Source of the DNA: a virus
Taxonomy: Duplodnaviria > Heunggongvirae > Uroviricota > Caudoviricetes
Direction: 5' to 3' (one strand)
DNA: 12,227 nt
Virus record (IMG/VR): IMGVR_UViG_2671180903_000014
Span: 1 to 12,227 of that record
Part shown: positions 1-12,227 of the stretch, in pieces
Numbering within the stretch: the stretch's first letter is position 1
Layout of the letters: each line of letters begins with the position of its first letter
The notes under the pieces: generated by a model
What the model was told of the DNA's origin: nothing
The model's input: the letters and a program-made list of their open reading frames with translations, nothing else
Databases searched by the model: none
Made by a program: the position numbers and the translations under genes

Positions 1-1461
1 ATGAAAAAATTACTGCATCTTTTTTTCCCGCTCTCGCTGCGGGTACGTTTTCTGTTAGCAACGGCAGCAGTAGTATTGGTGCTTTCGCTTGCCTACGGAA
101 TGGTTGCGCTGATCGGTTATAGCGTCAGTTTCGATAAAACCACGTTTCGGCTGTTACGTGGCGAGAGCAATCTGTTCTATACCCTTGCGAAGTGGGAAAA
201 CAATAAGTTGCATGTCGAGTTACCCGAAAATATCGACAAGCAAAGCCCCACCATGACGCTAATTTATGATGAGAACGGGCAGCTTTTATGGGCGCAACGT
301 GACGTGCCCTGGCTGATGAAGATGATCCAGCCTGACTGGCTGAAATCGAATGGTTTTCATGAAATTGAAGCGGATGTTAACGATACCAGCCTCTTGCTGA
401 GTGGAGATCATTCTATACAGCAACAGTTGCAGGAAGTGCGGGAAGATGATGACGACGCGGAGATGACCCACTCGGTGGCGGTAAACGTCTACCCGGCAAC
501 ATCGCGGATGCCAAAGTTAACCATTGTGGTGGTGGATACCATTCCGGTGGAGCTAAAAAGTTCCTATATGGTCTGGAGCTGGTTTATCTATGTGCTCTCA
601 GCCAATCTGCTGTTAGTGATCCCGCTGCTGTGGGTCGCCGCCTGGTGGAGTTTACGCCCCATCGAAGCCCTGGCAAAAGAAGTCCGCGAACTGGAAGAAC
701 ATAACCGCGAATTGCTCAATCCAGCCACAACGCGAGAACTGACCAGTCTGGTACGAAACCTGAACCGACTGTTAAAAAGTGAACGCGAACGTTACGACAA
801 ATATCGTACGACGCTCACCGACCTGACCCATAGTCTGAAAACGCCACTGGCGGTGCTGCAAAGTACGCTGCGTTCTCTGCGTAGTGAGAAGATGAGCGTC
901 AGTGATGCTGAGCCGGTAATGCTGGAGCAAATCAGCCGCATTTCACAGCAAATTGGCTACTACCTGCATCGTGCCAGTATGCGCGGCGGGACATTGCTTA
1001 GCCGCGAGCTGCATCCGGTCGCCCCACTGCTGGACAATCTCACCTCGGCGCTGAACAAAGTGTATCAACGCAAAGGGGTCAATATCTCTCTCGATATTTC
1101 GCCAGAGATCAGCTTTGTCGGTGAGCAGAACGATTTTGTCGAGGTGATGGGCAACGTGCTGGATAATGCCTGTAAATATTGCCTCGAGTTTGTCGAAATA
1201 TCTGCAAGGCAAACAGACGAGCATCTCTATATTGTGGTCGAGGATGATGGCCCCGGTATTCCCTTAAGCAAGCGAGAGGTCATTTTCGACCGTGGTCAAC
1301 GGGTTGATACTTTACGCCCTGGGCAAGGTGTAGGGCTGGCGGTAGCCCGCGAAATCACCGAGCAGTATGAGGGTAAAATCGTCGCCGGAGAGAGCATGCT
1401 GGGCGGTGCGCGGATGGAGGTGATTTTTGGTCGCCAGCATTCTGCGCCGAAAGATGAATAA
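1..1461 (+). CDS. phoQ: Sensor histidine kinase PhoQ of the PhoP/PhoQ two-component system
   Basis: 486-aa ORF with N-terminal transmembrane segment, periplasmic acidic patch EDDDDAE, second transmembrane segment, HAMP region, H-box [12 protein letters not shown] and ATPase motifs (DNACKY, DDGPGI, GQGVGL); matches enterobacterial PhoQ from memory. Confidence 0.95.
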
Positions 1462-1972
1462 ATATGTCCTTTTATCACCACAGCAAGGCAACCAATTGAT
1501 TTAATTAAACAACTCACACTGCAAAAAGTGCTAAAAACAGCAAATTGACTACACCATTAACTACACCGTTCGGTGCACTGTATGAAACAACGTTGAACAA
1601 ATAGACACAAGAAATATACAGGCGGGTAATCTTTCCAGGGGGAAGCGCACCAATTCATGAGGGGCGTTAATGTCGATATGGGGATCCCCATAACGGGGCT
1701 ACCAGATTTTTTTTCCGGTTAACTGTTAATCAGGCTGGTGGGCTTTACCTGTTCGGTAGGTGTTATGATTATCGTAATACCTTTCCCCCAATGGGGTAAA
1801 AGCTCCAACCGTAACGATGTTCGTTATGGTTGCCTTGATGGTCTGAGTGGTCATTTTGACCATTCAGCCAATGACCTTAATCAGAATTTTTCGCTAAAAA
1901 ATGACGTTGGCCACGTCATCCGGAAAGCACAAAATCACGTCGATTTTTAATGAACGGTTAAACCGTCTTTTT

Positions 1973-2007
1973 GTCACGGTGTGTCACTGGTTGTCACTCT
2001 CCGTCAC
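1973..2007. repeat. Four direct copies of (T)GTCAC spaced exactly 10 bp apart
   Basis: GTCAC at 1973, 1983, 1993 and 2003, in non-coding DNA downstream of phoQ; resembles tandem arm-type recombinase sites (lambda Int arm consensus contains AGTCAC) or another phased binding array. Confidence 0.6.
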
Positions 2008-2096
2008 GATTGAGGTGGTGGACATTCTGCCCGACCGCGCATTTTTGCGCTATCGGGAATATCAAACAGTTACCGCGCCGACTTCCTCAAATTGAG

Positions 2097-2239
2097 GTTT
2101 CCGAAAATATCAGCGGGTTAGCGATTAAGCTGACGAGTAATTAAACTGCGAAAATTTCGTAGTTTGTGACTATCTGAAAGATAGTCGGTTGTTCCGGCCT
2201 CAGCCGTTGGCTGTTTCCGAAAATATCAGTAGGTTAGGC
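2097..2239. repeat. Pair of ~26-bp direct repeats (GTTTCCGAAAATATCAG..GGTTAG) 115 bp apart
   Basis: 2097-2124 and 2212-2239 differ at 2-3 positions; palindromes lie between them (GACTATCT-gaa-AGATAGTC at 2169-2187; CCAAAGCTCA-aaaa-TGAGCTTTGG at 2240-2263). Confidence 0.6.
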
Positions 2240-2277
2240 CAAAGCTCAAAAATGAGCTTTGGAACAATATCAACAAG

Positions 2278-2559
2278 TTACCGCCGTAACCGCTCCGGCT
2301 TCTTCCAGTGGTACGTAATTTTCTCCGTTTCCCGATACAGTGCCACGCGGCGATTGTAGGCCAGCATTTCAAGAACGCGGATCCGTATGTTGCGCATATC
2401 CACATCATTAAGCTGGATACCATCACGGCGCATCACCTCAGCAACAACACGCGCATAATTTTCGGCTGTCACGCTGTCCGGCTGCGTGGCCTGTTCGTCA
2501 GTCTGCTGGCTGATTCCACCAGCACGGCGGATTAATCCCAGTATTTCGGCTTCTGTCAT
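2278..2559 (-). CDS. Hypothetical 93-aa protein
   Basis: ATG at 2559 with upstream GGGTG; charged, protein-like composition; the overlapping plus-strand ORF looks like antisense. No family recognised. Confidence 0.4.
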   Translation of the reverse strand: MTEAEILGLIRRAGGISQQTDEQATQPDSVTAENYARVVAEVMRRDGIQLNDVDMRNIRIRVLEMLAYNRRVALYRETEKITYHWKKPERLRR

Positions 2560-2592
2560 TGTGCACCCATCGTTCTGATTGTCTGGTGTCGT

Positions 2593-2795
2593 CGGGTCCT
2601 TCCTGGAATTATGGACCCGTTACGGGGCGGCGACCTCGCGGTTTTTATCTGTTTATGAAAATTTTCCGGCAAAAGTCAGATCCGTTCTTCTTCTCTGTAA
2701 CAGACTGTTTAACAATGAAAATATTAAAAAAAGAAAGGATCTGACACGAGGCATTTTAGCCAGAAAATGCCATTATCAGATCCTTTCTCATTTTT
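2593..2795 (+). other. Lambda-type cos site 'cos-A' (cosQ, cosN, cosB) in plus orientation
   Basis: GGGTCCTTCC..GTTACG|GGGCGGCGACCT|CGCGGTTTTT..TTATGAAAATTTTCCGG..CCGTTCTTCTTC closely follows the lambda right-end/left-end junction as recalled; the 12-nt cohesive-end sequence is at 2625-2636. Three R-site-like repeats GATCC(G/T)TTCT follow (2681-2695 plus, 2730-2745 inverted, 2777-2789 plus), with an A/T-rich IHF-like stretch between the first two. Confidence 0.8.
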
Positions 2796-2815
2796 GTTCA
2801 ATAATTGCGCGTCTG

Positions 2816-3358
2816 TTACTCGCCTTTCTTCTGTAGCAACTTTTCCGGTACGTTTCCGGTTGTTTCTTTCAAGTAATCAGCCAGTATCTGTGGGAGGTTG
2901 TCGGCAACTCTGGCACTGGCATTACAGGCTTTAACCACTTCCCTTTTAAGCCTATCCAGCATGGCGGGGGTAATCTGTGGGAAGCTCCTTTGCATAGTAA
3001 GCGGGAGGCTGTCCATGATTGATGAAATCTGACTCGCCAGCTTTGAAAGCGCGTACAGGCAAAACTCAGTATCAATCACGTCACCGCGATCGCGCTCGTT
3101 TTTAAGTTCCTGCGCCTCCGCCTGTGCTGTCAGTAATCTGATCCTGACTCGTAAGAGTTCATCATCATCAATATCGCCTTTGTCGTTTGTAAGCTGGCTA
3201 ATTGCATTGTTAACCCTATTGTCTATCACGCTGGCAACATCATAAAACGCCTCACGGCCTTTACGTTCAACGGGAGTCACTCCCCACTTGTCGAACGCTG
3301 TCGCACTTACACGGCAGCTTTTCGCCATGTTTTTTTTGTTCATCAGGTGCGATTTCAT
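2816..3358 (-). CDS. Terminase small subunit, lambda Nu1-like
   Basis: Residues LLTAQAEAQELKNERDRGDVIDTEFCLYALSKLASQISSIMDSLPLTMQRSFP align with lambda Nu1 (LTRAQADAQELKNARDSAEVVETAFCTFVLSRIAGEIASILDGLPLSVQRRFP); N-terminus NKK..W..G..PV matches the Nu1 DNA-binding region. Start may be ATG 3358 or ATG 3343. Confidence 0.85.
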   Translation of the reverse strand: MKSHLMNKKNMAKSCRVSATAFDKWGVTPVERKGREAFYDVASVIDNRVNNAISQLTNDKGDIDDDELLRVRIRLLTAQAEAQELKNERDRGDVIDTEFCLYALSKLASQISSIMDSLPLTMQRSFPQITPAMLDRLKREVVKACNASARVADNLPQILADYLKETTGNVPEKLLQKKGE

Positions 3359-3399
3359 TAATACACCAACTTAATTACTGCTTCAGGTTGGTGTATTGT

Positions 3400-3534
3400 T
3401 TGCATCTTTCCCTTTTTATTCATAAAGATAGATCAAACAACGAAACCACCACCCCCCCCCTGAAAAGGCTCATAAATAGCGAAAAACCGCTAGGTCGCCG
3501 CCCCGTAACGGGCCATAATTCCAGGAAGGACCCG
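3400..3534 (-). other. Second lambda-type cos site 'cos-B' (cosQ, cosN, degenerate cosB) in minus orientation
   Basis: Minus strand reads GGGTCCTTCCTGGAATTATGGCCCGTTACG|GGGCGGCGACCT|AGCGGTTTTTCGCTATTTATGA and then diverges, including a G9 run; cohesive-end sequence at 3492-3503. The 53-bp stretch 3482-3534 is an inverted repeat of 2593-2646 with one mismatch and one 1-bp indel. Confidence 0.75.
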
Positions 3535-3535
3535 T

Positions 3536-3557
3536 AAAAAAGCCGGATTTCTCCGGC
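3536..3557 (-). terminator. Rho-independent terminator after the 137-aa gene
   Basis: Minus strand GCCGGAGAAATCCGGC hairpin followed by TTTTTT; 6 bp past the stop of the 137-aa ORF. Confidence 0.7.
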
Positions 3558-3563
3558 CTTGTC

Positions 3564-3977
3564 TCAGATGGTTTTCAGTATGCGATCGATGTCGCCGTCA
3601 TCGCCCTGGTTTCTGCCATCGTATGCCATGCCAGCTGATACGGCTTGCGGGCTGTGCATGTCCATAAAGTTTTCAAAGGCTGCGGTAAGTTCCGGCGCAA
3701 CCTTCGGACGTTCCTGCTCTATGGTCATGCTAAGGATGCTTTTAGCCGTACCAACATCGATACAAGGCACGTTTGCCATTGCACGCAACAGCGGCTGATA
3801 GTCTTTATGCTCATGAAGCGCCATAATCGCATCAGCGCGCGGCTTGTCCTGCTCTTCCAGTTTGTTTAGTTGATATACGGCCTCATAGGTTGATAAACCT
3901 CTGTCAGCCATTGCCCGCGCTTCGACTTTAAATTTACTCGCCAGCGGTAGCGTCATGATGCTTTCATTCGTTGCCAT
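3564..3977 (-). CDS. Hypothetical 137-aa acidic protein, last gene of the capsid operon
   Basis: Strong RBS (AGGGGGA) before ATG 3977; 12 bp after the gpD-like stop; followed by a terminator. No family recognised; not lambda FI or W by recalled sequence. Confidence 0.55.
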   Translation of the reverse strand: MATNESIMTLPLASKFKVEARAMADRGLSTYEAVYQLNKLEEQDKPRADAIMALHEHKDYQPLLRAMANVPCIDVGTAKSILSMTIEQERPKVAPELTAAFENFMDMHSPQAVSAGMAYDGRNQGDDGDIDRILKTI

Positions 3978-3989
3978 CGTTCCCCCTGC

Positions 3990-4325
3990 TTATCGGGCCA
4001 GCGGCTGAACGGATACGCCGGAACCCGCAAAGGCGGCGCATTTTTTCGCATCGGTGTCGACGCTCTCAGGCCAGTTAACGGCGGCAATATTGAATATCCC
4101 CGTCTTGTAACACTGTGCTGATTTCTGCTTTGACGTGCCCACAGGGTACGAGGTCAGATAAACAGCCTTGCCAGATTCCTGACCATCCCACGGCTTAAAC
4201 TCGCCATTGTCTGCCAGCATCAGCGGGGTAAATTCCTGAATAACGCCAGCATCAGCGGCAAAATGTACCAACGTCGTGGATACCTGCTGACTGCCTGCAA
4301 ATAACTCAATGTATGGAGTGTCCAT
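3990..4325 (-). CDS. Head decoration protein, lambda gpD family
   Basis: 111 aa; TPLML, WDG, YKTGIF, WPE and AFAG motifs align with lambda gpD (TPLML..WDG..YKSGTF..WPE..AFAG); RBS GGGGGGA. Confidence 0.85.
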   Translation of the reverse strand: MDTPYIELFAGSQQVSTTLVHFAADAGVIQEFTPLMLADNGEFKPWDGQESGKAVYLTSYPVGTSKQKSAQCYKTGIFNIAAVNWPESVDTDAKKCAAFAGSGVSVQPLAR

Positions 4326-4337
4326 AGAATCCCCCCG

Positions 4338-5393
4338 TTAACCAATTTTGACGGTAACAAATTTGCGAATATCTGCCGGTACCGGCTGCGGTGCACTGTG
4401 TGTCTGCACGTACTCAATCGCCGGATCGCCGTCCTCAATCCAGTTTTTCGGGTAAAACATGTTTTGTGTTGCGCCCGTTCTTACCGCTTCCTGATCCATT
4501 ATCGCACCATAGGCCACCAGCCCTTTATTGTTGGTGTTACCCAGGACCAGCAAATCAGGCTCAAGGAAATATTTTTCGGTACCATCGCTGTCAGTGTATT
4601 TGCCGGAATAGACGATAAGGGCCAGATCACCAAGATAGCCTTTAAAGCTCACCACTTCGCCCAGGTTTTTACAGGCCAGTTCGGCGGCGGATTCTGAACC
4701 ACGGGAAAGATCGTACAGCTCACGGAATTTTTTAAAGCTGCCTAATGTGCGCCATACCTCAGCGCCCATAATCATGACGTTTGCGGGGCAACCAGCCTGA
4801 TCAGCATAAAGCTCGATGTCATAGATTGGGTCGTGCATGTCTTTATCCTGCTCGGACCATTTTTTACCCTTGGCCTGCTCTATGATGCAGTTTTCCGGTA
4901 TTTTCCAGTCGATTTCATAGCGTTCTATGCCTTCGCCCTCAATGATGTTTTTTCCGGTCGTTACCGCATTCACCGCCAGCCATTCCACGCGTGCCTTAAT
5001 GGCGTTTATCTGGCGGCGCATGTTGCCAGTAATCAGGCGCATACGGCGATAGGTAGGGTCGTTAAGCTGTGCCGGATCTTCTCCAGCCATGCGCATGATG
5101 GTTTTCGTTGGATCGATTTCGTGCTTTGGCTTCATGTAGCCAGGTTTGATTGTGCTGGTTTCGTACCCTTTATCGCGCTGAACCTGGCTACCCACCATAG
5201 GCGAACAAAACGCCGACATGGTGACTTCTTCAATGTCCAGGGTATCCAGCATGATGTTTTGCGTGCTGAATGTCGCCACGTTCGGGAAAAACAGCGTGGT
5301 AAACAGAGGGCTGAATTTAAAATCCGCAATATCCCCGCGATTCAGGTACATGAAAAGCTGGTTAGTGTTAAGTGCCGTTGCTTTGCCTGCCAT
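4338..5393 (-). CDS. Major capsid protein, lambda gpE family
   Basis: 351 aa; collinear with lambda gpE (FKF.PLF..LFF, PGY.KPKHE, DP.YRR.R, RDK..DP..DIE.YA, YKG..GD.A.VYSG, VLGNT, YPKNW, GDPA.E); RBS GGGGGTGA. Confidence 0.9.
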   Translation of the reverse strand: MAGKATALNTNQLFMYLNRGDIADFKFSPLFTTLFFPNVATFSTQNIMLDTLDIEEVTMSAFCSPMVGSQVQRDKGYETSTIKPGYMKPKHEIDPTKTIMRMAGEDPAQLNDPTYRRMRLITGNMRRQINAIKARVEWLAVNAVTTGKNIIEGEGIERYEIDWKIPENCIIEQAKGKKWSEQDKDMHDPIYDIELYADQAGCPANVMIMGAEVWRTLGSFKKFRELYDLSRGSESAAELACKNLGEVVSFKGYLGDLALIVYSGKYTDSDGTEKYFLEPDLLVLGNTNNKGLVAYGAIMDQEAVRTGATQNMFYPKNWIEDGDPAIEYVQTHSAPQPVPADIRKFVTVKIG

Positions 5394-5599
5394 TATTCAC
5401 CCCCATAATTTTTATGCATCCCAAGCGCCGCAAGTAAATAAGAGCGTACAAGTGAACCTATCGACGGCTCCGGCGTCATCAGCGGATCCAGTCCAGCCGC
5501 AACGCCAGCTTCATAGTTTTTTTTGTGGCGCTGCTTGAGCACCTCCACGATTTCGGGGCTTATGTACACCGAAACACCGCCTTTTTTCTCTTCAGCCAT
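5393..5599 (-). CDS. Hypothetical 68-aa protein, first gene of the capsid operon
   Basis: ATG at 5599 preceded by AAGAGGAA; its stop overlaps the capsid start codon (TAATG), suggesting translational coupling. No family recognised. Confidence 0.45.
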   Translation of the reverse strand: MAEEKKGGVSVYISPEIVEVLKQRHKKNYEAGVAAGLDPLMTPEPSIGSLVRSYLLAALGMHKNYGGE

Positions 5600-5633
5600 A
5601 GTAAGAAATTCCTCTTCGACTAAAAAAATCATA

Positions 5634-5684
5634 ACTGGATGTTTATCCAGTCCTGATTATAATCAGAATTGCATTTTATGCAAT
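5634..5684 (-). promoter_or_regulatory. Sigma70-like promoter overlapped by three adjacent palindromic operators
   Basis: Minus-strand -35 TTGCAT (5683-5678), 16-bp spacer, -10 TATAAT (5661-5656). Palindromes: ACTGGAT-gttt-ATCCAGT (5634-5651), CTGATTATAATCAG (5653-5666), ATTGCAT-ttt-ATGCAAT (5668-5684). Confidence 0.55.
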
Positions 5685-5764
5685 GATATTGAGTTATGTT
5701 GCAAATTATGAAATGATTATCCCGATCACGAACGCCAGTGCATCCAAAAACCTCATATGCAAAA

Positions 5765-5830
5765 GCCCGATAAGAACCCTCTGACCTTATCGGGCTTTTT
5801 TTGGGCGCAAAAAAGCCGGATTGCTCCGGC
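5765..5830. terminator. Tandem terminators between the 74-aa gene and the capsid promoter
   Basis: Hairpin GCCCGATAAG..CTTATCGGGC with T7 on the plus side and A4 on the other (5765-5802), then minus-strand GCCGGAGCAATCCGGC plus T6 (5809-5830). Confidence 0.65.
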
Positions 5831-5850
5831 TATGTGTGCTGTGTGCTGGC

Positions 5851-6075
5851 TCAGTCTCTGATCTCTTTCAGAAATTCTATCAATGCATCTATCTGTTCAG
5901 GATTTACCGCCAGCATTTCACCGGATAGAGCACATCTCACAAAACCATGCTGATCCTTTTCAATCAGTGCGCCCGTCTCCAGGAATGCGCGGTAATCATT
6001 GATGCTCATCGTCTCCATGTTGTCAGCATGGTATTTATCACGCTGTTTTAATATCTCATCAAATTTCATCGGCAT
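5851..6075 (-). CDS. Hypothetical 74-aa protein, monocistronic between terminators
   Basis: ATG at 6075 preceded by AGAGGAAAAA; terminators on both sides. No family recognised; only one Cys, so not an Ogr/Delta zinc finger. Confidence 0.5.
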   Translation of the reverse strand: MPMKFDEILKQRDKYHADNMETMSINDYRAFLETGALIEKDQHGFVRCALSGEMLAVNPEQIDALIEFLKEIRD

Positions 6076-6171
6076 TGTTTTTTTCCTCTGTTGTGTCTGT
6101 TTGTTTCAGATAGTAACTATGCCTGACCGTGACGAAAACCCGGTAATGCGCCATACCGTTTCAACTGGTGC

Positions 6172-6194
6172 AAAAAAAGCCGGATTTCTCCGGC
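6172..6194 (-). terminator. Rho-independent terminator after the PerC-like gene
   Basis: Minus strand GCCGGAGAAATCCGGC followed by T7; near-identical to the terminators at 3536-3557 and 5809-5830. Confidence 0.7.
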
Positions 6195-6201
6195 TGTTTG
6201 A

Positions 6202-6474
6202 TTAGCTGTCCTGGTAATTGCGCCATATTTCATCACCAGCACCATCTATACCCATTTCGGCATAAGTGCGATCGACTGCCTTTTTCAGGTCTCCGAAATT
6301 ATCCGGCGGCTCCGGTGCCCTCTGTGCCTTCCTTGAACATTCCAGCCGTCGCATCGTGATGTGATGCCGTTCCTTGTCTGTCTCCACCAGCTGCATGACT
6401 TCACCCCATCGCGCCGCCGCCCTCCGGTAAAAGCCTTTCGCCTCCAGTTCCTCCGCTATGCGGTCATGTACCAT
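6202..6474 (-). CDS. Small PerC-family-like regulator (about 90 aa)
   Basis: Start taken at ATG 6474 (MVHDRIAEELEAKGFYRRAAARWGEVM), 11 nt after the SSB stop with GGGGGTG as RBS; the A..LE..G.YRRAA.RW motif resembles PerC-family proteins from memory. The longer 130-aa ORF call would overlap SSB. Confidence 0.45.
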   Translation of the reverse strand: MVHDRIAEELEAKGFYRRAAARWGEVMQLVETDKERHHITMRRLECSRKAQRAPEPPDNFGDLKKAVDRTYAEMGIDGAGDEIWRNYQDS

Positions 6475-6484
6475 CGTCACCCCC

Positions 6485-6895
6485 TCAGAACGAAATATCA
6501 TCACCGTAAGAGTCATCGCCTCCCGCTGGTGGCTGATTACCCTGTGTGCCTGTGGTTTTGCGTCTGTTCCCGCCTGGACGTGCCGCGCGGGCACTGATTA
6601 CGCTGTCTGCGATAACCTGCCAGCCCTGCCGCGTTTCTCCGTTCTGTCCGGTCCACTGGCTTACCTGCATCGTGCCGGATACGCTGGCAACATCGCCTTT
6701 TTGATGTTTAGCCAGGAAGTCGGCCTGTTTGCCAAATGCGATGACCGATAACCATAACGTCGCCTGTCCGTCCTGTGCCTGGCTGCATGGCAAAGATACC
6801 GCCATACGCGCCAGCGTCATCGGTGTGCCCTTGCTGGTCTGTTTTACCTGCGGGTCGTCCACCAGCCGCCCGTAAGCGGCTATCTGTGCCGTCAT
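6485..6895 (-). CDS. Single-stranded DNA-binding protein, SSB-like
   Basis: 136 aa; OB-fold-like N-terminal region, Gly/Pro/Gln-rich linker and acidic C-terminal tip GDDISF (compare E. coli SSB DDDIPF). Confidence 0.65.
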   Translation of the reverse strand: MTAQIAAYGRLVDDPQVKQTSKGTPMTLARMAVSLPCSQAQDGQATLWLSVIAFGKQADFLAKHQKGDVASVSGTMQVSQWTGQNGETRQGWQVIADSVISARAARPGGNRRKTTGTQGNQPPAGGDDSYGDDISF

Positions 6896-7143
6896 AATTC
6901 CACCTCTCCGGTTTTAACGTTGATGGTTGTTACCTGTTCCGCTTCGGCAATCTCCCGTTCTGTCAGCGTGGCAAAGTTTGCCGCCGCCGTGGTCATGAAT
7001 GCGCTTATCAGGTCGGGATGTTCCTTCGCGTATCCTTCCCGCGTGTGGCGGTCTATCGTTCTGATTGCCACCTTTAAGGTGTGCTCAGTCATGTCTAACG
7101 CTTTATATTTTGGCTCTGTTCTGTCTCTGCGTTTTTGGGTCAT
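6892..7143 (-). CDS. Hypothetical small protein between the origin and ssb
   Basis: The longest ORF begins at a GTG (7173) inside the iteron array; ATG 7143 or ATG 7092 are more plausible starts. Stop overlaps the ssb start (ATGA). Confidence 0.35.
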   Translation of the reverse strand: MTQKRRDRTEPKYKALDMTEHTLKVAIRTIDRHTREGYAKEHPDLISAFMTTAAANFATLTEREIAEAEQVTTINVKTGEVEL

Positions 7144-7149
7144 TTCTCG

Positions 7150-7350
7150 CAACCTCTCACTTTTTCGCCTCACTTTTTCAAGCGTCTCACTTCGTCGCAG
7201 TTGGGATTTTCGGTTTTTCTATGTGTGTGTTTCATAAGTATTTTTTTACCCCTCACTTTTGAGGATGTATACAGGTCGAAAAGTGAGGGAGAGCGGGCTA
7301 ATTTTGGCCCTCTTTCTATCCCCCTCGCTTTTGCTCCTCACTTTTATAGC
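7150..7350. repeat. Iteron array with a central A/T-rich stretch; candidate replication origin
   Basis: Seven copies of CCTCAC(T/G)TTT (7156, 7169, 7186, 7250, 7323, 7337 direct; 7279 inverted) flanking an A/T-rich stretch at 7201-7248, immediately 3' of the rep gene. Confidence 0.6.
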
Positions 7351-8743
7351 GGCGCTACATCATCCCCATCGATACGAATAACCCCATCTTTTTCCAGCTT
7401 GTACAGCCAGCGCCGGAAGTTTTTCATTTCATACCCCAGCTTTTTCATGTCATCACGTAACAGCGGGATCGTGCACTTGTCGCCGTTCTGTGTGCGTGAA
7501 CGGATGCACCCCCATAGCGCGGTATGGTTTTCCGTCTTGTTCCCTGCCTCCTCGATGCGCTCCAGTTCAACAGGAGGGCGCGGATCATCCACCACCACCA
7601 GCGACGTGATTAATTCACCGTCAGCGTCGGTAAAAAGCTCCACCACGCGTAAGTCATATGCGGCTTCTTTGAGTTCCTCCGCGTCCTTCATTTTGGTGCA
7701 TGAGATAACCAGCGCTTCGCTTCCTGCGTCCTCCCTGCGTATCCGGTATTCAGCATCCAGCGAAGCACGAAATGCACTGGAACCGCGCGCGCCTTTCGTC
7801 TCATCCTTGCCGGAATGGTGAACCACCAGCACCGTGGCCCCTGTGCGTCGTTTCAGTTCGTCACAACCACGGATAAACGCCCCATATCACGGGAATCATT
7901 TTCATCATTCCCACCAAAGCAACGCGCCAGCGTATCCAGAATAATCATGCGTACAGGTTTACCCGTTTCCCGCTCCACCTGACGGGCAGCGATAACCATT
8001 TCATCAACATCAAGCGGGGCAGCCGGAAAGATGGGGCGGTTTACCAGATACAGATTTTTCACCTGCTCATCGTGCACAACCTCCCAGGCTTTTACACGAC
8101 GCGGAACACCTATACCGCCTTCACCAACCACATAGAGAACCGCACCATGTGCAACCCTGCGGCCTCCCCACTGGCGACCAGTGGCAACATGGCACGCCCA
8201 CGATCCGGCAAGGAATGATTTATAGGACCCGCTAGCCCCGTATATGCTGCATAGCGATACCGCCGGAATAATCCCCTTAACCACGTAATCCAGTTGCGTG
8301 TCGTATCCGGTAGATCCAACGCTCATCGGTAGCGTGGTTTTTCGCTGGTGGTTTTTTTCTTCCGCCGGCTCTTTCCCGCGCACCCGTTCCAGGTATTCGC
8401 GCCAGTTCTCCCGCATATGGCTGTGCATCCCTTCGGGGTAATAATTCGCATCAGTTACACCCGCCGCCGCCAGCTTGTGCGCAATGGCATTAATATTTGA
8501 TGGCCTGATGTGGCCTGCCTTGTACAGCCGGACACAATAGCGCCCCTCGTCGATGATTCTCAGGTCTGCCAGTTCATCCAGTTGATCATCAGCCAGCACA
8601 ACGGGAGGCACATTATCGCCAGCCAGTCGCCCGTCCTGTTCCTGCCACTGTTTCGCATGTGCCCAGGCATCACTACCCGCAAAAATAATGACTTCGGTCA
8701 TCTTGTCGTAAGGCTGTTTTTTTAAGTTCGGTGCGCTTTTCAT
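7344..8743 (-). pseudogene. RepA-like AAA ATPase (RecA-fold replication helicase) split by a frameshift
   Basis: The upstream ORF (8743-7853) ends ..ILDTLARCFGGNDENDSRDMG; the downstream ORF continues in another frame with AFIRGCDELKRRTGATVLVVHHSGKDETKG. Joined, they give the typical DEN..M......L....G..VL.VHH..K motif. The frames meet in the C4/G4 run at 7880-7883; one extra G would restore a ~470-aa protein. Confidence 0.75.
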
Positions 8744-8761
8744 TTCTTGCCCCTGAATCCG

Positions 8762-9208
8762 TTAAAATCTGGCCTGAACTGCCGGAGGCGTAGGCCATTC
8801 AATATCTGGCGCACTGGAGGTATCAACCAGCTCCAGTGCATCCAGATAATCCAGCCACAAATTATATTGCGCCAGTTCCTCACCTTTCAGACGACCAATA
8901 GCGGCTTTACCGGGCCATTGCTTACTGTTCATGTATTCGTTGGCCTGGTTAATTAGTAGCTGTCTTTCTGATTCAGTAATTTCAATAAGCTCTTCATGCG
9001 TGGGTGGAGGAATATCTGCCCACGCAGGCAGCCCATCATCTCCGGCAATACGGATTTTTCCTTGTGGCGGTTCAGCCATAAACTCACTGATAATATTTTG
9101 ATTTACTTCCTTAGCGTCTGATAAATCCCATCCCTCTGATTTATATTTATCAATCATATCCACAGGGAAAAAAGCATTATGCCTTGCGCTATAAACATAT
9201 TCGTTCAT
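8762..9208 (-). CDS. Tail fibre assembly protein (Tfa)
   Basis: N-terminus MNEYVYSARHNAFFP and C-terminus ..VDTSSAPDIEWPTPP match Tfa proteins (lambda Tfa ends ..VDTSTAPDIEWP); RBS AGGGTGA before ATG 9208. The longest ORF starts at a GTG (9217). Confidence 0.85.
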   Translation of the reverse strand: MNEYVYSARHNAFFPVDMIDKYKSEGWDLSDAKEVNQNIISEFMAEPPQGKIRIAGDDGLPAWADIPPPTHEELIEITESERQLLINQANEYMNSKQWPGKAAIGRLKGEELAQYNLWLDYLDALELVDTSSAPDIEWPTPPAVQARF

Positions 9209-9228
9209 ATAAATCACCCTGAATAAAA

Positions 9229-9642
9229 TTACTCACCAACAGCCCACCAACTGTAATTCATCGATACCGTGTCGCTGGTTGATGACGTTCTGTAAGCAGA
9301 ATTAAAGCCGGTTAACGTTGGGCCTTCTGCAGTCATCACGAACCCTCGCCCAGCGCCTAAAGGCGCACCGCCATCACCAGAATGAGTAAGCATGGCGCAG
9401 TCCGCTTTTTTGGGGAAAGGGATGCTGAATGTAATTCTCATTGTTTGCGTCGATAATGTCGGCGTAACCGCACCACGACCATATTGCAGGATTTTCCCGT
9501 TGGGTAATTTCATCCATCCATCACCACTGGCAAAAGAGGCCATGTCCGGTATCTGATTTTCCCCTGTCCCCACATCCCGTTTTGCCGCTTCTCCCAAACC
9601 AACGTTTATGAAAATGCAGAAATAACGAGCAAATGGCATCAT
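9229..9642 (-). pseudogene. Tail-fibre C-terminal variable segment without its constant N-terminal part (alternate cassette of an invertible segment)
   Basis: Lies between the crossover site and tfa, reading away from pin, as for the alternate Sv' cassette of the Mu G segment and the e14 P segment; no tail-fibre N-terminal domain upstream. Confidence 0.5.
9589..9614. other. Candidate Pin crossover site (pix-like)
   Basis: TTCTCCCAAACCAACGTTTATGAAAA matches the recalled hixL site TTCTTGAAAACCAAGGTTTTTGATAA at 20 of 26 positions; sits just upstream of pin inside the tail-fibre fragment. Confidence 0.55.
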
Positions 9643-9668
9643 TCCTGCTTTTGTCAGGGGGATCTACC

Positions 9669-10223
9669 ATGCTTATTGGCTATGTACGCGTATCAACAAA
9701 TGACCAGAACACAGATCTACAACGTAATGCGCTGAACTGTGCAGGATGCGAGCTGATTTTTGAAGACAAGATAAGCGGTACAAAGTCCGAAAGGCCGGGA
9801 CTGAAAAAACTGCTCAGGACATTATCGGCAGGTGACACGCTGGTGGTCTGGAAACTGGACCGGCTGGGGCGCAGTATGCGGCATCTTGTCGTGCTGGTGG
9901 AGGAGTTGCGCGAACGAGGCATCAACTTTCGTAGTCTGACGGATTCAATTGATACCAGTACCCCAATGGGGCGCTTTTTCTTTCATGTGATGGGTGCCCT
10001 GGCTGAAATGGAGCGTGAACTGATTGTTGAAAGAACAAAAGCTGGACTGGAAGCTGCTCGCGCACAGGGACGAATTGGTGGACGTCGTCCCAAACTTACA
10101 CCAGAACAATGGGAACAGGCCGGACGATTAATTGCATCAGGAGTTCCTCGCCAGAAGGTGGCGATTATCTATGATGTTGGTGTGTCAACTTTGTATAAGA
10201 GGTTTCCTGCAGGGGATAAATAA
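9669..10223 (+). CDS. pin: Serine DNA invertase Pin (Hin/Gin/Cin family)
   Basis: MLIGYVRVSTNDQNTDLQRNAL..VVWKLDRLGRS..GINFRSLTDSIDTS.PMGRFFFHVMGALAEMERELI..GRIGGR with C-terminal HTH; RBS AGGGGGA before ATG 9669. The listed ORF start at 9633 is an upstream extension. Confidence 0.92.
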   Translation: MLIGYVRVSTNDQNTDLQRNALNCAGCELIFEDKISGTKSERPGLKKLLRTLSAGDTLVVWKLDRLGRSMRHLVVLVEELRERGINFRSLTDSIDTSTPMGRFFFHVMGALAEMERELIVERTKAGLEAARAQGRIGGRRPKLTPEQWEQAGRLIASGVPRQKVAIIYDVGVSTLYKRFPAGDK

Positions 10224-10329
10224 AGTTAAAGACACTTTGTGTACAAAAGAAAGTAAAACAACAGCAACTTGTTGCAATTTTATCAATAAAAGTAGTATTG
10301 TCGTGAAAAATTGATTAAAGATTAATATT

Positions 10330-11163
10330 ATGCATGTTTTTGATAATAATGGAATTGAACTGAAAGCTGAGTGTTCGATAGGTGAAGAGGATGGTGTTTA
10401 TGGTCTAATCCTTGAGTCGTGGGGGCCGGGTGACAGAAACAAAGATTACAATATCGCTCTTGATTATATCATTGAACGGTTGGTTGATTCTGGTGTATCC
10501 CAAGTCGTAGTATATCTGGCGTCATCATCAGTCAGAAAACATATGCATTCTTTGGATGAAAGAAAAATCCATCCTGGTGAATATTTTACTTTGATTGGTA
10601 ATAGCCCCCGCGAGATACGCTTGAAGATGTGTGGTTATCAGGCTTATTTTAGTCGTACGGGGAGAAAGGAAATTCCTTCCGGCAATAGAACGAAACGAAT
10701 ATTGATAAATGTTCCAGGTATTTATAGTGACAGTTTTTGGGCGTCTATAATACGTGGAGAACTATCAGAGCTTTCACAGCCTACAGATGATGAATCGCTT
10801 CTGAATATGAGGGTTAGTAAATTAATTAAGAAAACGTTGGGTCAACCCGAGGGCTCCAGGAAACCAGTTGAGGTAGAAAGACTACAAAAAGTTTATGTCC
10901 GAGACCCGATGGTAAAAGCTTGGATTTTACAGCAAAGTAAAGGTATATGTGAAAACTGTGGTAAAAATGCTCCGTTTTATTTAAATGATGGAAACCCATA
11001 TTTGGAAGTGCATCATGTAATTCCCCTGTCTTCAGGTGGTGCTGATACAACAGATAACTGTGTTGCCCTTTGTCCGAATTGTCATAGAGAATTGCACTAT
11101 AGTAAAAATGCAAAAGAACTAATCGAGATGCTTTACGTTAATATAAACCGATTACAGAAATAA
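10330..11163 (+). CDS. mcrA: Type IV modification-dependent restriction endonuclease McrA (HNH)
   Basis: 277 aa; matches e14 McrA from memory, with C-terminal HNH motif HHVIPLSSGG..NCVALCPNCH; A/T-rich context typical of acquired DNA. Confidence 0.92.
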   Translation: MHVFDNNGIELKAECSIGEEDGVYGLILESWGPGDRNKDYNIALDYIIERLVDSGVSQVVVYLASSSVRKHMHSLDERKIHPGEYFTLIGNSPREIRLKMCGYQAYFSRTGRKEIPSGNRTKRILINVPGIYSDSFWASIIRGELSELSQPTDDESLLNMRVSKLIKKTLGQPEGSRKPVEVERLQKVYVRDPMVKAWILQQSKGICENCGKNAPFYLNDGNPYLEVHHVIPLSSGGADTTDNCVALCPNCHRELHYSKNAKELIEMLYVNINRLQK

Positions 11164-11397
11164 AATTGTTTATTAAAGTCACATTTAAGACGTAATACCC
11201 TACAGGGTAAAAATTTTCTCTGATCTTAACTTCTGCAAATGTTAACTGCTATTTTTATGCTAAAAATGGTTATCAAAACTCAAAAACACATGTTTATAAT
11301 CAATGAGTTATAGAAATGCTAAGGGCTAATGAGTTATATGCAAATTAGTAAAATTATGTTGCTATCTCAAATAGTTACGATTTAGTCATCTAACTAA

Positions 11398-11562
11398 TGC
11401 TGCGCCATATGGGCTGGACTGAAGCCGCAGACCTGATTGTTAAAGGTATGGAAGGCGCAATCAACGCCAAGACCGTAACCTATGACTTCGAACGTCTGAT
11501 GGAAGGCGCTAAACTGCTGAAATGTTCAGAGTTTGGTGACGCGATCATCAAAAATATGTAAT
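11398..11562 (+). pseudogene. icdC: Displaced 3' end of icd (isocitrate dehydrogenase), marking the e14-type attR
   Basis: In-frame translation [53 protein letters not shown] is the ICD C-terminus; no upstream icd body. Confidence 0.85.
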
Positions 11563-11584
11563 TACCACATGTGTTAAATATTAT

Positions 11585-11613
11585 AACGGGCGTATAACAC
11601 GCCCGTTGTTTTT
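11585..11613 (+). terminator. Rho-independent terminator after the icd remnant
   Basis: AACGGGCGT-ataac-ACGCCCGTT hairpin followed by GTTTTT, 23 bp past the stop. Confidence 0.6.
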
Positions 11614-11822
11614 ATAAATATGTTAACCGTTATAAAATAACGTATCAAAAGTCAAGTGAACACATTTCAAATATCAATTTGATCGTATTGGTCTGGTGAT
11701 TATTTATGGGGAGCAATAAAAAGACAGTATTAATCATCCATAGGGATAGTCTCTGCACTTTTATTTCCATTATGCTAATGCCTTACTGAATTATGAAGCA
11801 TTTTTTAAGCTCCCAACTTTAG

Positions 11823-12227
11823 CTAGATTAATGGTTTATTATTTTCTACATCTTCAATATATAAAAGCGTATTATCAATGGCGTAGTAACTGCGTTTGTT
11901 ATGATTAACATCAGTAACCCACCGGAAAACGCCAGCGCCTGCCAGTGTTGAACAGTATTCCCGAAATGTAGATTTTCCGCGAATATGAAGCAATGCGGCC
12001 TCTTTTATTTTAGCTGGGTTCTTGGTCGTACTAACTTTTAACAGGTTCCTGGTTCCTCTTAATAACAAAACCGTGTCATCGTGAGTAATAATTCTGATGT
12101 TATCCGTAGCCAGATAATAAATGTAATGTGCAATACGGTGATGTTTTAATTCTGAATAAAACCAGGAGAAGTTTTGCTCTTTTCTCACTTGCTCAAACAT
12201 CTTTTGAAAAACAACGACCTGATCCAT
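11823..12227 (-). CDS. DUF1398-family protein (YcgX/YbcV/YdfO-like)
   Basis: 134 aa; C-terminal AGVFRWVTD..YYAIDNTLLYIE resembles the prophage-flanking DUF1398 family from memory. Position next to icdC fits K-12 ycgX, but iraM is not seen between them. Confidence 0.55.
   Translation of the reverse strand: MDQVVVFQKMFEQVRKEQNFSWFYSELKHHRIAHYIYYLATDNIRIITHDDTVLLLRGTRNLLKVSTTKNPAKIKEAALLHIRGKSTFREYCSTLAGAGVFRWVTDVNHNKRSYYAIDNTLLYIEDVENNKPLI

Follow-up and report, generated by a model that had tools for sequence, protein, structure and literature searches.

A probable one-base scaffold gap joins a phoQ-adjacent phage satellite to the right end of an e14-family prophage in an Escherichia coli draft assembly

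Introduction

Serine invertases of the Din family can recombine at secondary ("quasi") crossover sites, as described for Cin (cixQ) and for Gin. Short-read scaffolders such as SSPACE and GapFiller write a single N where two contigs are inferred to abut or overlap. Among phage satellites, enterobacterial phage-inducible chromosomal islands (PICIs) have as core components an integrase, an AlpA-type regulator, a replicase, a capsid-morphogenesis gene, and a small terminase gene (PMC10085698), and capsid-forming PICIs (cf-PICIs) are defined by a large terminase gene (terL) together with a head-tail adaptor and a connector (PMC10085698; bioRxiv 10.1101/2022.09.08.507074). Here, we analyze a stretch of 12,227 nt (the window; positions 1 to 12,227 of IMG/VR virus record IMGVR_UViG_2671180903_000014) in which phoQ, part of a phage satellite, and the right end of an e14-family prophage follow one another in an order that differs from that of E. 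coli K-12. We conclude that the window very probably consists of two separately assembled pieces that were abutted at a one-base gap in a scaffolded short-read draft.

In K-12, the layout of which a first-pass annotation of the window had given correctly, roxA lies 75 bp from phoQ, which is on the minus strand, pinE and mcrA are on the plus strand about 20 kb from phoQ, and iraM lies between icdC and ycgX. Its gene-level statements on the window also hold: phage-like DNA follows phoQ, pin, mcrA, icdC, and ycgX are on the strands given, and roxA and iraM are absent. The order of these genes was read as an inversion or other rearrangement with one breakpoint just 3′ of phoQ, possibly prophage-mediated, or as a misassembly.

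Results

A listing of open reading frames (ORFs), together with a comparison against a set of 5,426 complete E. coli genomes, resolved the window into three blocks: phoQ, satellite DNA, and an e14-family right end. The contact between the second and third blocks is at position 8766. Homology to satellites ends at 8765, within the 3′ end of a DUF4222 gene and 22 nt upstream of the start codon of repA, and homology to e14 begins at 8767, at the stop codon of tfa. The two sequences share no microhomology at the 8765/8767 join, and the A at position 8766 fits neither parental sequence. Public scaffold CXZF01000007.1 (GCA_001283985.1) matches window positions 6453–10143 from its position 52384 to 56074 with the sole exception of 8766, where the scaffold has an N and the window has an A; it also carries the window's C at 10091, where a sister assembly has a T. 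Because the record reads N at this position, the 8765/8767 contact is a scaffold gap (8766..8766). The whole window would correspond to positions ~45,932–58,158 of CXZF01000007.1. A boundary between 8700 and 8800 had been singled out for checking in the first-pass annotation, and there is a true discontinuity there; the window as a single contiguous sequenced molecule, by contrast, is not borne out, as the public scaffold has an N at 8766.

Multiple comparisons bear on this join. First, no place in the 5,426 complete genomes covered at least 80% of the window, none of these genomes contained both pieces within 6.6 kb of each other, and the exact window junction was not found in species-representative genomes. 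Second, no record was found for the junction-specific tfa protein with the C-terminus encoded by the window, starting from either possible start codon, and the N-containing record has a 148-residue tfa call with an X at the gap. As the junction-specific protein is unrecorded and the bases match elsewhere, the window appears to be the scaffold with its N rendered as A. We infer that the A in the window replaces the N of the record and that the joins derive from read-pair scaffolding. The stop codon of the tfa ORF (8762–8764) comes from satellite DNA, so that the predicted protein ends in ...QARF* instead of ...QAR*; this extra codon and the TAA stop are an artifact of the join. Third, intact satellites (L001, L004, L005, and L006 in our numbering of comparison loci) run past the position equivalent to 8765 into the DUF4222 gene, and the four sources L004, L005, L006, and L018, which do the same, thus have a satellite that is intact at this point. 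From the other side, e14-family prophages (L002 and L007–L016) run leftwards beyond 8767 into the convergent tfa gene.

Two sister scaffolds make related joins at other coordinates. CYEM01000008.1 (GCA_001283345.2) is 99.99% identical to the window, with 2 mismatches over 11.4 kb (1–8765 and 9588–12227), and joins 8765 via a single N to 9588, omitting 8766–9587. In the third assembly, CYGR01000008.1 (GCA_001286665.1), position 8385 is followed by 231 N and then by 9777. A look-up with the lineage-specific 296-residue RepA fragment encoded by the window returned nine contigs, among them CXZF01000007.1, CYEM01000008.1, and those of L004, L005, L006, and L018, and CYGR01000008.1 came from a look-up with the 162-residue fragment. 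By coordinate arithmetic, the phoQ-containing piece is the terminal 53–55 kb of the scaffold in all three assemblies. We found no papers that name these assemblies.

The first piece (piece A; 1–8765) begins with phoQ and continues, about 5 nt past its stop codon, with the right half of an 11-kb PICI-type satellite. The phoQ gene (1..1461, plus strand) is complete and encodes the commonest 486-residue E. coli PhoQ variant; proteins identical to it occur in 32,716 blocks of the collection. When the K-12 phoQ-roxA spacer, the window, and L001 were compared across the attachment junction (1462..1471), homology to the K-12 spacer stopped at ~1466, ~5 nt past the phoQ stop codon. The spacer resumes at the far end of the intact element of O55:H7 strain CB9615, and both junctions contain the short core ATATGTCC. 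A 26-nt direct repeat, AATTGACTACACCATTAACTACACCG (1543..1568, plus strand), lies just inside each end of intact satellites, with its other copy at the integrase end. This repeat was considered as the attachment core and rejected, as it does not occur in the K-12 spacer; the true core is ATATGTCC.

The satellite DNA in the window (1467..8765, minus strand) is the right-hand 7.3 kb of the element, and the integrase-proximal half is outside the window. Positions 2266–8765 are 99.0% identical to the intact CB9615 element, which lies between phoQ and roxA, and the satellite stretch is 99.97–99.99% identical to L003, L004, and L005. This 11-kb element is also found between the two genes in many O157:H7, O55:H7, and O111 genomes. 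From the phoQ side, the CB9615 element encodes a small terminase subunit, a 137-residue protein, a head decoration protein, a major capsid protein, a PerC-family regulator, and a single-stranded DNA-binding protein (SSB), followed by the RepA helicase, the DUF4222 protein, several small ORFs, a helix-turn-helix (HTH) regulator, and a tyrosine integrase that adjoins roxA. In L001 and L004, the protein next to roxA is a 409-residue integrase, which falls outside the window. Thus, roxA is missing from the window because it lies, together with the integrase-proximal half of the satellite, beyond the gap, and both the proximity of phoQ to phage DNA and the absence of roxA result from an ordinary satellite insertion. 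What had been taken for a rearrangement breakpoint just 3′ of phoQ (1400–2300) is the attachment junction of the satellite.

The second piece (piece B; 8767–12227) matches e14-family prophages at their right end, together with the adjoining chromosome. It comprises one half of the invertible P segment, the ixR crossover site, pin, mcrA, and icdC, and then an iraM-less ymgL-ycgX allele. The P-segment half contains tfa, a tail fiber assembly gene (Caudo_TAP; 8767..9208, minus strand), and an alternative tail-fiber C-terminal segment of the stfE type (Gp53-like_C; 9229..9639, minus strand). Over 1,700 nt, piece B is identical to a Mu-like prophage that occupies the icd locus in L007, and the two have the same tail-fiber module. 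The Pin crossover site ixR (9589..9614, plus strand) reads TTCTCCCAAACC AA CGTTTATGAAAA and forms an inverted repeat with ixL in L002. Both sites of this inverted pair are present in L002 and L007–L016; the window contains only ixR, and ixL is beyond the gap together with the rest of the P segment. The pinE gene (9669..10223, plus strand) is intact and encodes a 184-residue serine DNA invertase with Resolvase and HTH_7 domains. It is followed by mcrA (10330..11163, plus strand; HNH, 277 residues) and by icdC (11397..11561, plus strand), a duplicate of the icd 3′ end that serves as a marker of the right e14 attachment site.

Beyond icdC, ~0.8 kb containing iraM and ymgK is missing compared to e14-bearing genomes. 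In other strains, two copies of a ~45-nt hairpin repeat flank the iraM-ymgK cassette; in their place, the window has a single hybrid copy, AACGGGCGT...ACGCCCGTT (11566..11612), followed by ycgX (DUF1398; 11823..12227, minus strand). The same arrangement of ycgX and ymgL (41 residues) without iraM also adjoins icd in the e14-free genomes L040 and L041. Judged from these sequences, the iraM-less ycgX-ymgL arrangement is a natural standing allele. The absence of iraM noted in the first-pass annotation is real, but it is an ordinary allele also found in e14-free genomes. No finished genome shared either the iraM-deletion junction or the variable stretch next to the satellite attachment site. The scaffolder's join at 8766 is the sole support for the K-12-discordant orientation of pieces A and B.

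Several points weigh against the conclusion that the window is two pieces abutted at a gap. First, the base comparison with CXZF01000007.1 covered 3,691 bases, and the remaining 8.5 kb was inferred from the sister scaffold. Second, the window could come from another version of the record, with an A called at 8766. Third, three assemblies agree both in the two pieces that they join and in the orientation of the join, which suggests that read pairs do link these pieces. Finally, a 231-N gap that looks measured separates otherwise unique repA and pin sequence in one of these assemblies, and the join may reflect real molecules. A real rearrangement and an erroneous join appear about equally probable to us, and the evidence on each is set out below.

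The most probable account of how the pieces came together, to which we give somewhat less than an even chance, is a purely erroneous join. The strain would then have the K-12 order, with an intact satellite between phoQ and roxA and an e14-family prophage, likewise intact, at icd, and the wrong end of the 55-kb piece would have been attached because both contig ends are repeat boundaries; near-identical genomes passing through the same pipeline would repeat the error. On the satellite side, 8766 is the last base that separates RepA-type satellites from the common primase-type satellites (L022 and L031), and beyond it the DUF4222 genes of the two types are identical for 145–210 nt. The 5′ region of repA from ~8352–8378 is also common to primase-type satellites and begins near the 8385 end of the third assembly. 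This satellite family occupies several loci per genome, and related satellites with the same packaging genes are found at several other chromosomal sites. On the prophage side, the P-segment/pin module recurs in many different prophages, a C/T polymorphism occurs at the position of this module equivalent to 8766, and the ixL/ixR inverted repeat has its outer edge at 9588, a point at which flipping of the P segment creates a fork. The intact satellite in closely related strains, the lack of this adjacency in any finished genome, and the different join coordinates in each of the three assemblies all favor an error as well. By contrast, an erroneous join leaves unexplained why repA is linked to pin three times, once with a 231-N estimate between seemingly unique flanks, and requires that the break coincide by chance with the only ix-like motif. 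It also presupposes that the strain has a further satellite and a further P module. In the prophage remnants of L013 and L015, a P-segment half and ixR are followed by only the first ~120 nt of pin (to ~9790 in window coordinates) and then by a GmrSD-type gene; truncated pin copies of this kind would act as repeats in short-read assemblies.

The second account is a ~55-kb inversion catalyzed by the e14 invertase Pin, which we regard as unlikely, although specific features of the break speak for it. In this model, recombination between ixR and an ix-like motif (Q) in the satellite flips the segment containing repA, phoQ, icd, and the body of e14 and places repA beside pin, and assembly breaks off at the junction because forks arise from alternative states or repeated copies. 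At the break, just upstream of repA, the sequence of intact satellites is AACC AT GGTTT, and the assembled piece ends on its satellite side with the only two bases of Q that are kept (8764..8765). AACCWWSGTTT, the core that ixL and ixR share, has one match in the 32.5 kb of L001, at 20549–20559, directly on the break, compared to 0.12 matches expected. Among 49 loci (~0.7 Mb), AACCATGGTTT at the satellite-side break is the only match to this core that is not an ix site. The motif was noticed after the junction had been inspected, and its significance is for this reason somewhat inflated. Moreover, the e14-side end of the join in CYEM01000008.1, at 9588, coincides with the outer limit of the ixL/ixR inverted repeat, pin is intact, and the link between the repA and pin sides has, in all three assemblies, the orientation that an inversion predicts.

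Other features of the joins are difficult to reconcile with Pin-mediated inversion. The satellite piece stops at 8765, which is 3–4 nt short of the crossover expected at the AT core. CYEM01000008.1 retains a complete ixR and no hybrid site, and lacks the CC and core of Q. In the window, the join is at the end of tfa, a place 822 nt from ixR that lacks any ix-like site. In addition, the central dinucleotides are unequal (AT in Q and AA in ix). Studies of Hin, Gin, and Cin indicate that unequal cores disfavor productive exchange, and 55 kb is a long distance for an enhancer-dependent invertase. Exchange by Pin is predicted to produce the hybrid sites GAATCCGTTAACC-NN-CGTTTATG (H1) and GCTGAAAACC-NN-GGTTTGGGAGAAG (H2). 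Neither was found in metagenome contigs or contigs of species-representative genomes, a small search space that makes this a weak negative. A predicted fusion of DUF4222 to a tail fiber was absent among 5.8 billion proteins, another weak negative, and the longer DUF4222 variants P0003 and P0055 have unrelated tails. A literature search for Pin quasi-sites gave no relevant match. The first-pass suggestion of an inversion or a misassembly stands in part: the N at 8766 supports a misassembly or unverified join, and the inversion is neither proven nor disproven. In L010, L012, and L016, the pin/tail-fiber end of Mu-like prophages lies within a few kb of satellite-like or P4-like integrases, and pin-bearing prophage ends and satellites are therefore recurrent neighbors.

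A real rearrangement by some other route seems improbable to us. It could involve homologous recombination between inverted copies of related satellite or prophage modules on either side of the phoQ-icd segment, illegitimate joining across one filler base, or insertion beside pin of a partial copy of the repA 5′ region. Prophage-mediated inversions are known in E. coli O157, which counts in favor of such a route. Both single-N joins fit one uncalled base between forks (8765 + 1 nt + 8767 in one case and 8765 + 1 nt + 9588 in the other), and a segment of ~380 nt present in two copies would fit the contig ends at 8385 and 8765. Assemblers drop short junction nodes, and a forked junction would be expected to yield single-N joins; a mixed population or duplicated flanks could be the source of such forks. 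By contrast, there is no microhomology at the join, the two different e14-side partners in sister strains demand an additional and exact 822-nt deletion, and finished genomes contain nothing of the kind. Among more specific candidates, homologous recombination between DUF4222 genes was rejected, as those of the satellite and of icd-integrated prophages have no nucleotide similarity, and a hidden insertion sequence element at the join is disfavored by the 231-N read-pair gap. Lambdoid prophages at icd (L032–L039, at ~1540–1780) do carry a 79-residue DUF4222 gene, beside xis and int and inverted relative to that of the satellite.

The satellite genes within the window were assigned to Pfam families using the identical genes of the sister scaffold. 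All are on the minus strand and encode a small terminase subunit (Phage_Nu1; 2816..3358), a head decoration protein similar to lambda gpD (HDPD; 3990..4325), a major capsid protein similar to lambda gpE (Phage_cap_E; 4338..5393), a PerC-family regulator (6202..6474), SSB (6485..6895), and the RepA helicase (AAA_25; 7344..8743). In the intact 11-kb relative L001, no tail, lysis/holin, portal, connector, or terL gene is annotated. The regulator in L001 is a 62-residue HTH protein, and the homologous position in L029 and L031 is occupied by Phage_AlpA. Taken together, the integrase, AlpA-type regulator, replicase, capsid-morphogenesis genes, and small terminase gene of this satellite family fit the enterobacterial PICI class, as far as gene content can indicate.

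Compared to the 466-residue RepA of CB9615, repA in the window has a 1-nt deletion at nt 860 of the gene (near 7884), which divides it into ORFs of 296 and 162 residues. The lesion is present in all nine contigs that carry the 296-residue product, and for this reason the satellite lineage with the split gene probably cannot replicate on its own.

Other parts of the satellite vary among relatives. The stretch from the attachment site to the gene for a 93-residue protein (1868–2265) could not be aligned with the O157/O55 version (398 nt compared to 183 nt) and was not found in any complete RefSeq genome. The 93-residue protein itself differs at 10 residues from its O157 counterpart and is widespread in satellites at other loci (6,082 blocks). 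A GC-rich hairpin, AAAAAGCCGGATTNCTCCGGC, occurs between satellite genes in three copies (3537–3557, 5810–5830, and 6174–6194), where chance would yield none; read on the coding (minus) strand, the copies are terminator-like stem-loops that follow the genes for the 137-residue protein, a 74-residue protein, and PerC. Finally, L005/L052 (JNRU01000025.1 of GCA_000704845.1) has a phoQ-side half that is 99.98% identical to the window and a different integrase-proximal half, with a 413-residue integrase and a Phage_ASH gene, of the type found at the narP/ccm locus in L022. The switch point is within ~0.5 kb upstream of DUF4222, and L005/L052 is either a mosaic satellite or a contig that crosses between two co-resident satellites.

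Discussion

The gene order of the window very probably results from an ordinary satellite insertion beside phoQ plus a join of two separately assembled pieces, and an inversion is unproven. The elements that are firmly present all belong to known types, namely a PICI-type satellite in the spacer between phoQ and roxA, the right end of an e14-family prophage, and an allele without iraM. Of these, the satellite and the iraM-less allele are real departures from K-12, and both are ordinary strain variation. The locus mainly serves as a warning that two contigs can pass for a rearranged chromosome once a base has taken the place of a single N.

It is conceivable, although doubtful, that Pin used or still uses a secondary crossover site in the neighboring PICI satellite, flipping ~55 kb that includes phoPQ, purB, and icd. 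If so, the locus would be a natural case in which a phage tail-fiber switch recombinase rearranges the core genome between two mobile elements, and mobile elements would have a documented way to invert core chromosome segments, by means of a cryptic-prophage serine invertase that acts on a look-alike site within a satellite.

How does this locus compare with described systems? The ~11-kb intact relatives of the satellite share the core components of enterobacterial PICIs such as EcCICFT073; the window differs in holding only the integrase-distal 7.3 kb, with a frameshifted repA. Like the cf-PICI prototype EcCIEDL933, the satellite encodes its own capsid-related proteins and small terminase subunit. 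Membership in the cf-PICIs was considered and rejected, as neither terL nor the adaptor nor the connector is annotated in L001. With the e14 prophage of K-12, piece B has in common the order tfa, stf C-terminus, ix site, pinE, mcrA, and icdC. By contrast with K-12 e14, the window has one half of the P segment without ixL, lacks iraM downstream, and has a tail-fiber module that matches the larger Mu-like e14-family prophage of L007 instead.

The break itself resembles two known phenomena. Like the quasi-sites of Din-family invertases, the break sequence shares only the inner part of a crossover site; it differs from them in that no hybrid was recovered, in the AT compared to AA cores, and in the ~55-kb distance. 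Like the single-N joins made by short-read scaffolders, it has one N between sequences that continue differently in all finished relatives, at coordinates that vary by assembly.

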